In this document: piece by piece, positions 8,445 to 18,735 of the stretch
Position numbering within the stretch: position 1 is the stretch's first letter
Layout: every line of letters starts with the position of its first letter
Position numbers and translations under genes: made by a program
NCBI RefSeq assembly: GCF_988242995.1
Contig: NZ_OZ547043.1
Strand: one strand, 5' to 3'
DNA: 64,000 nt
The notes under the pieces: generated by a model
Database searches by the model: none
Told to the model about the DNA's origin: nothing
Seen by the model: only the letters and a program-made list of their open reading frames with translations

Positions 8445-8469
8445 AAAAGCGCCTGCGGGCGCTTTTTTT
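8445..8469 (+). terminator. Rho-independent terminator of serS
   Basis: aaaaagcgcctgcgggcgcttttttt: GC stem agcgcc/ggcgct with a T7 run, directly after the serS stop. Confidence 0.65.
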
Positions 8470-9180
8470 GTGCACAGAAAACCCCCAGCTAGGCTGGGGG
8501 TTCCGGAAAGCTTTCAGCTTTGAGCCAGTTATTAAAACCCCTTTTGATTTGTTAAAACACCTTGCGGTCTGGCAACTGCAAGTGTCAAACAAGAAATCAA
8601 AAGGGGGTCCCAATGGGGGACGAAAAGAGCTTAGCGCACACCCGCTGGAACTGTAAATATCACATAGTTTTTGCGCCGAAATACCGAAGACTGGCGTTTT
8701 ACGGAGAGAAGCGTAGGGCGATAGGCAGTATTTTGAGAAAGCTGTGTGAGTGGAAAAGCGTACGGATTCTGGAAGCAGAGTGCTGCGCAGATCATATCCA
8801 TATGCTTGTGGAAATCCCACCCAAAATGAGCGTATCCGGCTTTATGGGATATCTGAAAGGGAAAAGCAGTCTGATGCTTTACGAGCAGTTTGGGGATTTG
8901 AAATTCAAATACAGAAACAGGGAGTTCTGGTGCCGAGGGTACTATGTCGATACGGTGGGTAAGAACACGGCGAAGATACGTGACTACATAAAGCACCAGC
9001 TTGAAGAGGATAAAATGGGGGAGCAGTTATCGATTCCATATCCGGGCAGCCCGTTTACGGGCCGTAAGTAACGAAGTTGAATGCAAATGTCAGATCGTAT
9101 GCGCCTGTTAGGGCGCGGCTGGTAACAGAGCCTTACAGGCGCATTTGAAAAACCTCCGGCTATGCCGGAGGATATTTATT
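8467..9180 (+). mobile_element. IS200 insertion sequence, copy 1 (IS200/IS605 family, ~714 bp)
   Basis: Identical to the second copy at 13344..14057 over ~714 bp (both boundaries offset by 4877 bp); encodes IS200 TnpA; left-end hairpin aacccccag/ctgggggtt at 8480..8502 and right-end hairpins including cctccggc/gccggagg. Ends are inferred from where the two copies' flanks diverge, so +/- a few bp. Confidence 0.85.
8613..9071 (+). CDS. tnpA: IS200 transposase TnpA (Y1/HUH transposase, 152 aa)
   Basis: MGDEKSLAHTRWNCKYHIVFAPKYRR...HIHMLVEIPPKMSVS...YYVDTVGKN is the IS200 TnpA sequence with the HuH motif and catalytic Tyr; start taken at the internal Met of ORF 8562..9071. Confidence 0.9.
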   Translation: MGDEKSLAHTRWNCKYHIVFAPKYRRLAFYGEKRRAIGSILRKLCEWKSVRILEAECCADHIHMLVEIPPKMSVSGFMGYLKGKSSLMLYEQFGDLKFKYRNREFWCRGYYVDTVGKNTAKIRDYIKHQLEEDKMGEQLSIPYPGSPFTGRK

Positions 9181-13318: not shown

Positions 13319-13346
13319 AACCGGGGTTTCGACCCCGGTTCTCTTT
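13319..13346. terminator. Hairpin after dmsC (aaccgggg...ccccggtt), probably the native bidirectional dmsC/ycaC terminator
   Basis: Perfect 8-bp GC-rich stem with a T-rich tail ctcttt; lies between the dmsC stop and the left end of IS200 copy 2. Confidence 0.5.
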
Positions 13347-14057
13347 GTGCACAGAAAACCCCCAGCTAGGCTGGGGGTTCCGGAAAGCTTTCAGCTTTGA
13401 GCCAGTTATTAAAACCCCTTTTGATTTGTTAAAACACCTTGCGGTCTGGCAACTGCAAGTGTCAAACAAGAAATCAAAAGGGGGTCCCAATGGGGGACGA
13501 AAAGAGCTTAGCGCACACCCGCTGGAACTGTAAATATCACATAGTTTTTGCGCCGAAATACCGAAGACTGGCGTTTTACGGAGAGAAGCGTAGGGCGATA
13601 GGCAGTATTTTGAGAAAGCTGTGTGAGTGGAAAAGCGTACGGATTCTGGAAGCAGAGTGCTGCGCAGATCATATCCATATGCTTGTGGAAATCCCACCCA
13701 AAATGAGCGTATCCGGCTTTATGGGATATCTGAAAGGGAAAAGCAGTCTGATGCTTTACGAGCAGTTTGGGGATTTGAAATTCAAATACAGAAACAGGGA
13801 GTTCTGGTGCCGAGGGTACTATGTCGATACGGTGGGTAAGAACACGGCGAAGATACGTGACTACATAAAGCACCAGCTTGAAGAGGATAAAATGGGGGAG
13901 CAGTTATCGATTCCATATCCGGGCAGCCCGTTTACGGGCCGTAAGTAACGAAGTTGAATGCAAATGTCAGATCGTATGCGCCTGTTAGGGCGCGGCTGGT
14001 AACAGAGCCTTACAGGCGCATTTGAAAAACCTCCGGCTATGCCGGAGGATATTTATT
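13344..14057 (+). mobile_element. IS200 insertion sequence, copy 2 (same orientation as copy 1)
   Basis: Identical to 8467..9180 judging by identical six-frame ORFs and visible sequence; flanks differ on both sides. Right end abuts the ycaC stop codon. Confidence 0.85.
13490..13948 (+). CDS. tnpA: IS200 transposase TnpA (second copy)
   Basis: Translation identical to the TnpA at 8613..9071. Confidence 0.9.
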   Translation: MGDEKSLAHTRWNCKYHIVFAPKYRRLAFYGEKRRAIGSILRKLCEWKSVRILEAECCADHIHMLVEIPPKMSVSGFMGYLKGKSSLMLYEQFGDLKFKYRNREFWCRGYYVDTVGKNTAKIRDYIKHQLEEDKMGEQLSIPYPGSPFTGRK

Positions 14058-16355: not shown

Positions 16356-17786
16356 ATGGCTGGGAATGTTCAGGAAAAACAGCTGCGATGGTACAACATT
16401 GCGCTGATGTCTTTTATCACTGTCTGGGGTTTTGGCAACGTTGTTAATAACTACGCCAACCAGGGGCTGGTGGTTGTTTTTTCATGGGTGTTTATCTTTG
16501 CGCTCTATTTCACACCTTATGCGCTAATTGTTGGTCAGTTAGGCTCGACCTTCAAAGATGGGAAGGGCGGGGTCAGTACCTGGATTAAACACACGATGGG
16601 ACCCGGACTGGCTTACCTCGCCGCGTGGACCTACTGGGTAGTGCATATTCCCTATCTGGCACAAAAACCCCAGGCAATACTGATTGCGCTCGGTTGGGCG
16701 ATGAAAGGCGACGGTTCGTTAATCAAAGAATATTCAGTCGTAGCGTTACAGGGGTTAACGCTGGTGCTGTTTATCTTCTTTATGTGGGTTGCTTCACGCG
16801 GTATGAAATCGCTGAAAATCGTCGGTTCTGTGGCAGGGATTGCGATGTTTGTTATGTCGCTCCTGTATGTGGCGATGGCGGTAACCGCGCCTGCGATTAC
16901 TGAAGTGCATATTGCGACCACAAACATTACCTGGGAAACGTTCATTCCTCATATCGACTTTACCTACATTACCACTATTTCAATGCTGGTTTTCGCGGTT
17001 GGCGGAGCAGAGAAGATTTCTCCTTACGTTAATCAAACGCGCAACCCAGGAAAAGAATTTCCAAAAGGGATGTTATGCCTGGCGGTGATGGTTGCGGTTT
17101 GTGCCATTCTGGGCTCACTGGCGATGGGGATGATGTTTGACTCGCGTAATATCCCGGATGACTTAATGACTAACGGTCAGTATTACGCCTTTCAGAAGCT
17201 GGGCGAGTATTACAACATGGGTAATACTTTAATGGTGATTTATGCCATTGCGAATACCCTGGGACAAGTAGCTGCGCTGGTATTCTCGATTGATGCGCCG
17301 CTTAAAGTGTTATTAGGCGATGCTGACAGCAAATATATTCCAGCCAGTTTATGTCGTACCAACGCTTCTGGTACGCCCGTTAATGGCTATTTTCTGACCC
17401 TGGTGCTGGTGGCGATCCTGATAATGCTACCGACTCTCGGCATTGGTGATATGAACAATCTCTATAAATGGCTGTTGAATCTTAACTCGGTAGTGATGCC
17501 GCTGCGTTATTTATGGGTATTTGTTGCATTTATTGCAGTTGTTCGCCTGGCGCAGAAATATAAACCAGAATATGTCTTTATTCGTAATAAGCCGCTGGCA
17601 ATGACCGTCGGAATTTGGTGTTTTGCCTTTACCGCTTTTGCCTGCCTGACTGGTATTTTCCCGAAAATGGAAGCCTTCACCGCAGAGTGGACATTCCAGT
17701 TGGCGCTGAATGTTGCAACGCCGTTTGTGTTGGTAGGATTAGGACTGATATTCCCGCTGCTGGCGCGTAAAGCGAATGGTAAATAA
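16356..17786 (+). CDS. ycaM: APC-family amino acid transporter YcaM
   Basis: ORF 16164..17786 contains MAGNVQEKQLRWYNIALMSFITVWGFGNVVNNYANQG; start set at that Met (476 aa). The upstream ORF extension is AT-rich promoter sequence. Confidence 0.9.
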   Translation: MAGNVQEKQLRWYNIALMSFITVWGFGNVVNNYANQGLVVVFSWVFIFALYFTPYALIVGQLGSTFKDGKGGVSTWIKHTMGPGLAYLAAWTYWVVHIPYLAQKPQAILIALGWAMKGDGSLIKEYSVVALQGLTLVLFIFFMWVASRGMKSLKIVGSVAGIAMFVMSLLYVAMAVTAPAITEVHIATTNITWETFIPHIDFTYITTISMLVFAVGGAEKISPYVNQTRNPGKEFPKGMLCLAVMVAVCAILGSLAMGMMFDSRNIPDDLMTNGQYYAFQKLGEYYNMGNTLMVIYAIANTLGQVAALVFSIDAPLKVLLGDADSKYIPASLCRTNASGTPVNGYFLTLVLVAILIMLPTLGIGDMNNLYKWLLNLNSVVMPLRYLWVFVAFIAVVRLAQKYKPEYVFIRNKPLAMTVGIWCFAFTAFACLTGIFPKMEAFTAEWTFQLALNVATPFVLVGLGLIFPLLARKANGK

Positions 17787-17953
17787 TTATTGTGGTCGGT
17801 GACGCTGACTCTGGCAGATCTGACCCGTTTTTACATAATCGAGAAATGCGCGCAAGCCGCAGGACATATACTGGCGGTTTGGGTAATACATTTGGAAGCT
17901 GTGCTGTAAGGGCGTTAGAAATAGAGCTCTGAATTATTATGCAGCGCGGAATA

Positions 17954-17984
17954 AAAAAGCGGCAACTCAATAAAGTTGCCGCTT
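17954..17984 (-). terminator. Rho-independent terminator downstream of pflA
   Basis: aaaaagcggcaactcaataaagttgccgcttt: on the minus strand an 11-bp stem aaagcggcaac/gttgccgcttt followed by a T-run. Confidence 0.55.
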
Positions 17985-17994
17985 TACGGGGAAA

Positions 17995-18735
17995 TTAGAA
18001 CATTACCTTATGACCGTACTGCTCAAGAATGCCTTTCACGCGTTCCATGGTTTCTTTCTTAGGTGGTTTAACACCATCGAGTTTGTATTCTTCACCCATC
18101 GCCACCCATTTGTGTTTGCCCAGTTCGTGGTAGGGGAGAAGCTCGATTTTCTCAACGTTGCCCATATCACGGGTAAATTCACCGAGGCGATGCGCTGAAT
18201 CGTCATCGTCAGACCAGCCTGGGACAACAACGTAGCGGATCCACACCTTCACATTTTTGTTCGCCAGATATTTGGCGAACTCCAGCGTGCGGTGGTTTGA
18301 AACTCCAACCAGATTTTGGTGGATCTCGTCGTTCATCTGTTTGAGATCGAGCATTACCAGGTCGGTTACTTCCAGCAGTTCATCAATCACCGGATCGTAA
18401 CGACGAACAAAACCGTTGGTGTCCAGACAGGTATGAATGCCTTCTTTTTTGCAGGCGCGGAACCAGTCACGAACAAACTCAGCTTGCAGGATTGCTTCAC
18501 CGCCGGATGCGGTAACGCCGCCGCCGGAAGCGTTCATAAAGTGGCGATAGGTCACCACCTCTTTCATTAAATCTTCAACGGTAACTTCTTTACCGCCATG
18601 CGTGTCCCAGGTGTCGCGGTTATGACAATACAGGCAGCGCATCAGGCAGCCCTGGAAAAAGGTGATAAAGCGAATACCCGGGCCGTCTACGGTTCCACAG
18701 GATTCAAAGGAGTGAATGCGACCAATAACTGACAT
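17995..18735 (-). CDS. pflA: Pyruvate formate-lyase activating enzyme PflA (radical SAM)
   Basis: [43 protein letters not shown] carries the CxxxCxxC radical-SAM motif; start at the internal Met of ORF 17995..18762. Confidence 0.95.

Follow-up and report, generated by a model that had tools for sequence, protein, structure and literature searches.

A 208-bp ycaM-pflA interval in Escherichia coli that is probably the scar of a ycaN-ycaK deletion

Background

Deletions between short direct repeats, which arise by RecA-independent illegitimate recombination or by replication slippage, were classically described for spontaneous deletions in lacI. The genome papers of 2001 that compared E. coli K-12 with O157:H7 reportedly set apart K-12-specific segments under the name of 'K-islands'. 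For the locus described here, the K-12 YcaN protein has been reported to affect the adjacent genes ycaC, ycaD and focA and the use of formate, and the same paper notes the ycaN-ycaK-ycaM cluster for K-12 and Shigella boydii only (PMC9068703). Our literature searches found no article that discusses a deletion of ycaN-ycaK.

The DNA analyzed here, referred to as the window, is a stretch of 64,000 nucleotides from contig NZ_OZ547043.1 of RefSeq assembly GCF_988242995.1. A first-pass annotation, made from the sequence and from the K-12 gene order, had proposed that ycaN and ycaK are absent between ycaM and pflA, through either a clean deletion or an ancestral absence. The interval was compared with the K-12 locus, with the corresponding intervals of complete E. 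coli genomes and with those of other Escherichia lineages and other genera.

Layout of the ycaM-pflA interval

In the window the stop codon of ycaM (17786) and that of pflA, which lies on the minus strand (17995), are separated by 208 bp, as first reported. In a K-12-lineage locus, L001 (NZ_CP043193), these two stops have 1,680 bp between them, and the genes run in the order ycaD, ycaM on the plus strand, ycaN on the minus strand, ycaK on the plus strand and pflA on the minus strand; the K-12 order given by the first-pass annotation was therefore right. Both genes that border the interval are intact. The first, ycaM (16356..17786, plus strand), encodes an APC-family permease of 476 codons with 99.8% protein identity to K-12 YcaM and a match to Pfam AA_permease_2, and is annotated as ycaM in matching genomes; the second, pflA (17995..18735, minus strand), encodes the pyruvate formate-lyase activating enzyme with 100% protein identity to K-12 PflA. 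BLAST alignment showed window positions 17600-17899 to be collinear with L001 4801-5100, and positions 17939-18099 with L001 6612-6772.

The sequence nearest to pflA consists of a spacer and a terminator. According to the multi-species alignment, the spacer (17910..17955) corresponds to the segment that separates ycaK from the terminator in genomes of the long form. From 17910 to 17938 it is far from the K-12 sequence, with substitutions and small indels, and from 17939 onward it is K-12-like again. The pflA terminator, which the first-pass annotation had also placed in the interval, was located by a terminator scan as a hairpin at 17956..17985 with a 13-bp stem and, on the minus strand, a T-run after it. 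When the plus strand is read, the same hairpin is the first strong one downstream of ycaM, and the fold energy of 17900-17999 gives z = -3.75 for the minus strand and -4.98 for the plus strand.

A separate feature was seen in the 3' end of ycaM, where the window has nine substitutions relative to K-12 within 82 bp (17612-17693) and O157:H7 has one. These clustered substitutions are probably a small recombination patch particular to the window's lineage.

Remnants of ycaN and ycaK

The first 111 bp of the interval (17787..17897, minus strand) are the end of ycaN, identified both by tblastn and by alignment with K-12: they comprise the stop and the final 36 codons, corresponding to YcaN residues 267-302. 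In the tblastn search within the window, the 36 codons at 17790-17897 matched YcaN 267-302 at 35 of 36 residues (E = 2e-19); the translation of the stub is SFQMYYPNRQYMSCGLRAFLDYVKTGQICQSQRHRPQ, followed by the stop. At the DNA level 110 of 113 bases are those of K-12, with homology extending to 17899. The stub is orthologous to K-12 ycaN at the syntenic position and abuts the ycaM stop as ycaN does in K-12; a 34-codon minus-strand ORF at 17787-17891 is a portion of it. K-12 YcaN, a LysR-type regulator, has 302 codons, with the Pfam domain HTH_1 at residues 7-63 and a LysR_substrate envelope at 91-290; by this envelope the stub agrees with the C-terminal ends of other LysR proteins. The HTH_1 DNA-binding domain is missing from the window, and the LysR_substrate domain is incomplete, only its final 24 residues being encoded; the 36-residue stub by itself gave no Pfam match. 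Judged by its sequence, the stub is a pseudogene remnant and not a gene.

Less is left of ycaK. K-12 YcaK, an NAD(P)H oxidoreductase, has 196 codons, with the flavodoxin-like domain Flavodoxin_2 at residues 5-181. This domain is missing from the window, where the ycaK tail at 17900..17909 (plus strand) holds the last base of the fourth-from-last codon and the three last codons with the stop, reading T GTG CTG TAA for the T GCA CTA TAA of K-12. The plus-strand reading frame that ends at 17909, noted earlier and counted by us as 39 codons, is no gene but antisense ycaN sequence that runs into this stop codon of ycaK. The first-pass annotation was thus correct that ycaN and ycaK are missing as genes, but its statement that no ORF resembles either protein gives way to the 36-codon ycaN stub and the adjoining ycaK tail.

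Searches of the 64-kb window by tblastn with K-12 YcaN and YcaK gave no second copy of either gene, and there was no YcaK-like match anywhere in the window. That no displaced copy lies beyond the window would follow only from the analogy of the 1,034 complete short-form genomes described below. A functional RNA within the stub was also considered and rejected; the fold was no better than that of shuffled sequences (z = 0.19 and 1.56), and the stub had no Rfam match above noise. With both of these results negative, no evidence was seen that the stub has been kept for a function of its own.

The deletion junction

The K-12 alignment that had been proposed for finding the breakpoints placed them in GATCTGGAAGC (L001 5090-5100, in ycaN) and GATATGGTAGA (L001 6566-6576, in ycaK). 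These two sequences match at 8 of 11 positions and so form an imperfect 11-nt direct repeat, the copies being exactly 1,476 bp apart. One copy, CATTTGGAAGC, remains in the window at 17889..17899, where comparison with the K-12 repeat and alignment of the flanks show that it holds the junction. When the window was aligned separately to the left and right K-12 flanks, the two local alignments overlapped by 10 nt, ATTTGGAAGC. Removal of L001 5101-6576, with one repeat copy kept, reproduces the window, the spacer having in addition net 4 bp of indels relative to K-12. The earlier view that no repeat marks the junction consequently had to be abandoned, whereas the accompanying view that no IS element is present there was upheld, a probe with the end of IS1 finding nothing in the window.

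The 39 bp without a BLAST match to K-12 (17900-17938) were considered as foreign filler. This was rejected, as the multi-species alignment resolves them into the ycaK tail and spacer. That alignment took in the window, E. albertii and three other Escherichia short alleles, K-12 and a long-form outgroup contig.

Since stubs of both genes flank the junction, a complete gene pair was once present at this site. We conclude, with a probability of roughly 0.85, that the loss of 1,476 bp from an ancestor with the order ycaM-ycaN-ycaK-pflA left the 208-bp interval as its scar, and that roughly one in five complete E. coli genomes has the same junction. Of the two possibilities originally offered, deletion is therefore retained, and primary absence is set aside for this allele. 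The deletion would have taken ycaN codons 1-266, the 99-bp divergent promoter region between ycaN and ycaK, and 193 of the 196 ycaK codons; what it spared would be the pflA terminator, the stop region of ycaK and, directly next to ycaM, the 36 codons of the ycaN stub.

The spacing of the repeats equals the length of the deletion and one copy is retained, as is typical of recombination between short repeats and of replication slippage. One or other of these may have produced the deletion, and they are the best-supported mechanism. The mechanism is no more than suggested because the repeat is short and imperfect and its length was picked after the fact; a binomial estimate puts the chance of 8 matches in 11 in one fixed register at about 1e-3, for a repeat length chosen post hoc.

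Distribution among complete E. coli genomes

We surveyed 5,426 complete E. coli genomes. The long form, in which ycaN-ycaK DNA is present, was found in 3,341 genomes (for example K-12 and O104:H4) and the contiguous short form in 1,034 (for example O157:H7 Sakai, O55:H7, O145 and ST2747). In another 1,047, of which CFT073 is an example, ycaD is followed directly by pflA, ycaM having been lost as well. The three forms total 5,422 of the 5,426 genomes, from which it follows that the classes are mutually exclusive and that short-form genomes do not carry ycaN-ycaK elsewhere. An 81-bp junction probe matched 1,022 genomes, in every case over its full length and with 95-100% identity, and none of the matches fell under an annotated ycaK. 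The window's allele is common to about 19% of complete E. coli genomes, and a strain-private event is ruled out. Both long and short forms occur among O169:H41 strains. The RefSeq entry for the stub in O157:H7, O169:H41 and ST2747 is either an incomplete LysR pseudogene or a partial hypothetical protein. Junctions of the L008 and L007 types, which belong to other Escherichia lineages, were not found in the complete E. coli genomes.

Other rearrangements were seen at the same site. In the ycaD-pflA allele (L004 5946-6043; CFT073, L055 16202-16299) the ycaD and pflA terminators are joined by 4 bp; this allele looks like a separate 3.2-kb deletion, and it is read as a deletion because ycaM is present at the site in other genera. 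In strain CUPS04 (L051 1675-3067) an IS1 stands in place of the sequence that begins in the middle of ycaM and stops close to the ycaK end; here the same genes were lost independently, by way of an IS. P2-like prophages adjoin pflA in some strains (L005 1-5888; L006 5026-7938). Next to ogrK, L005 lacks pflA itself; the prophage of L006 carries an integrase, Cox and related genes.

Some features are particular to the window. In the run ATTATT(T)ATG at about 17931-17935 it has one T fewer than nearly all short-form genomes and E. albertii, and strain VCSW5 is the only one of the 1,022 genomes that is identical to the window along the whole 81-bp junction probe. For the larger region 8000-30000 the best match among complete E. 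coli genomes is 99.1% (strain ST2747), which indicates that the window's lineage is poorly represented among finished genomes. The window also carries two copies, of about 720 bp, of an IS200/IS605-family element, one between serS and dmsA (8454-9180) and one between dmsC and ycaC (13338-14057), both 99.3% identical to the tnpA-bearing element of ST2747. The ST2747 copy sits between aroA and ycaL, where the window has no such element. A role for an IS in the loss of ycaN-ycaK was considered and rejected; the size difference from the nearest genome is due to the IS200-like copies, which lie elsewhere.

Other Escherichia lineages and other genera

For a wider comparison the locus was fetched by way of YcaM, with one genome per species. 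A short form with a ycaN stub was present in all four of the non-K-12 Escherichia representatives that have both ycaM and pflA, namely E. albertii, MOD1-EC7003, SCPM-O-B-8794 and E1V33, and none of the non-coli Escherichia representatives retrieved had an intact ycaN-ycaK pair. The short forms fall into three junction classes: one comprises the window, O157 and E. albertii, another SCPM-O-B-8794 and E1V33, and the last MOD1-EC7003. No remnant of ycaN lies between ycaM and the pflA that follows it in Citrobacter, Kluyvera, Yokenella, Pluralibacter and Salmonella enterica subsp. arizonae and diarizonae; in the first three genera and in Salmonella this is a primary absence. An intact pflA-ycaK-ycaN-ycaM arrangement was found on one enterobacterial contig outside E. 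coli, 77% identical to K-12, and Pseudocitrobacter corydidari has a syntenic ycaK-ycaN pair. The long forms outside E. coli, taken together with the three junction classes, indicate that the presence of the pair at this site is ancient and that it has been lost more than once. The overall distribution of YcaN homologues is patchy. A YcaN match of 84% identity was rejected as a distinct homologue, as it came from a K-12-like contig with an internal deletion.

In other genera the gap between ycaM and pflA is a site of variable cargo (L012 7420-13206; L014, L034, L043; L017, L022, L035). In some Citrobacter and Kluyvera it is occupied by a cassette of about 5 kb which, judged from its ORF sequences, encodes PTS IIA-, IIB- and IIC-like proteins, an RpiR-like regulator and, in two ORFs, transketolase-like proteins; some Citrobacter have a 264-residue secreted protein in the gap. 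In a genome named 'E. coli strain E69' (L024 7429-13428), ycaM is about 90% identical to that of the window and is followed by three large membrane-protein ORFs (782, 446 and 373 residues), with no pflA within 6 kb.

Age and origin of the scar

Compared with K-12, the window and O157:H7 are identical from 17787 to 17882 and differ at 17883, 17889 and 17892. From 17900 to 17938 the divergence is about 40%, with indels, and over 17939-18051 there is again only one difference, so that an island of divergence of about 60 bp surrounds the junction. Within it, the window type and E. albertii share the junction register, TGTGCT in place of TGCACT, AAATA in place of AAACG, and a 7-bp deletion, and have at least five derived characters in common over about 50 bp. 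The K-12 spacer groups instead with those of SCPM-O-B-8794 and E1V33. The scar is read as old because the junction core resembles the E. albertii allele and not that of K-12; on this comparison, made over about 50 bp with one E. albertii genome, the scar probably predates the diversification of E. coli. The ycaN stub of E. albertii agrees with that of the window at 75 of 86 positions (87%), and the ycaM coding sequences of the two agree at 84-88%. The E. albertii stub is thus closer than neutral drift since before the species split would predict, which fits a later transfer between species or separate recent deletions.

Tentatively, and at somewhat less than even odds, we interpret the presence or absence of ycaN-ycaK as two old haplotypes that cross species boundaries, with no recent loss. 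The O157-like short allele would share its descent with that of E. albertii or have been exchanged between the species, the pair of K-12 would belong to the second haplotype, and recombination would have homogenized all but the island of about 60 bp. If so, the haplotype that carries the intact pair in K-12 groups by its spacer with other Escherichia lineages. It is possible, if on balance doubtful, that the E. coli and E. albertii alleles instead arose independently and fairly recently, by deletion between the same repeats in long alleles that had the window-type tail and spacer. Deletion has indeed happened more than once here: the junctions of the genus fall into at least three classes, confined to about 55 bp on the side of ycaN and about 25 bp on that of ycaK and all showing imperfect microhomology, and one strain shows an IS1-mediated deletion; moreover, the E. 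albertii stub is conserved like coding sequence, as expected had ycaN been functional there until recently. Recurrence of this kind has to contend, however, with the derived characters and register common to the window and E. albertii, with a repeat that is weaker (about 5 of 10) in the outgroup long form, and with the finding that the 3,341 long-form E. coli genomes include no long allele with a window-type spacer. A metagenome scan for such an allele used a 17-base degenerate pattern, which was unspecific; the one relevant locus of 120 was a short form.

The remaining explanations fare worse. Had the window's own lineage recently lost the genes from a K-12-type long allele, K-12-type sequence would be expected beside the junction, and the island of divergence contradicts this: the three stub differences are all found no more than 17 bp from the junction, beyond which 39 bp show about 40% divergence as well as indels. 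E. albertii, moreover, has the same junction, as do 1,022 genomes that represent diverse serotypes. The K-12-like flanks, and a stub whose identity (110/113) is level with that of ycaM at 97.3%, speak for such a recent event, which we nevertheless consider improbable. That the lineage never had ycaN and ycaK, and that K-12 gained both by insertion, would agree with the juxtaposition of ycaM and pflA, free of any remnant, in most relatives outside Escherichia, with the lack of an intact pair in the non-coli Escherichia representatives retrieved, and with the patchiness of YcaN homologues. An empty site, however, would have neither the 36 ycaN codons found in the window, which include part of the LysR effector domain, nor the ycaK stop region, and ancestral absence is accordingly very improbable. 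As for a collapse of 1.5 kb through an assembly or sequencing artefact, no point speaks for it, and the identical junction in more than 1,000 independently finished genomes makes it barely conceivable.

Implications

The absence of ycaN-ycaK is a real but ordinary strain polymorphism that is already annotated; its one mildly interesting side is the apparent age and cross-species haplotype structure of the scar. From the gene content, YcaN-dependent regulation and YcaK would be expected to be lost, and ycaM transcripts would extend about 170 nt further, to the shared terminator. Some 40% of complete E. coli genomes, made up of those with the window allele and those with the ycaD-pflA allele, are without the YcaN LysR regulator. 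Since the regulator is missing from these strains, regulatory findings made with K-12 YcaN are not transferable to O157:H7-like or CFT073-like strains. The locus also provides a small, clean marker with three alleles, and the sharp island at the junction illustrates the persistence of an old indel allele in a recombining species.

Comparison with known systems

The window resembles described deletions between short direct repeats in that the endpoints lie in a short repeat whose spacing equals the length of the deletion, one copy is kept, and there is neither a mobile element nor filler. It differs in that its repeat is imperfect (8/11) and that the event itself is unobservable. Like the K-islands, the ycaN-ycaK DNA is present in K-12 and missing from O157:H7 at a collinear backbone position. 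The K-12 locus with ycaN (b0900) and ycaK (b0901) occupies the same site, with the same flanking genes ycaD, ycaM, pflA and pflB, and shares the homologous ycaN 3' end and ycaK stop region; K-12, however, has an intact divergent pair, whereas the window has only stubs, with 39 bp of strongly divergent sequence after the junction. A further counterpart is a pseudogene of O157:H7 in the RefSeq/PGAP annotation (LSI70_RS19690, NZ_CP089034.1), described as 'LysR family transcriptional regulator, incomplete; missing N-terminus'. Apart from the run near 17933, in which the window has one T fewer, the correspondence is close: the O157:H7 allele has the same 111-bp stub, the same junction and the same flanking genes as the window, and the two stubs are identical at 113 of 113 positions.
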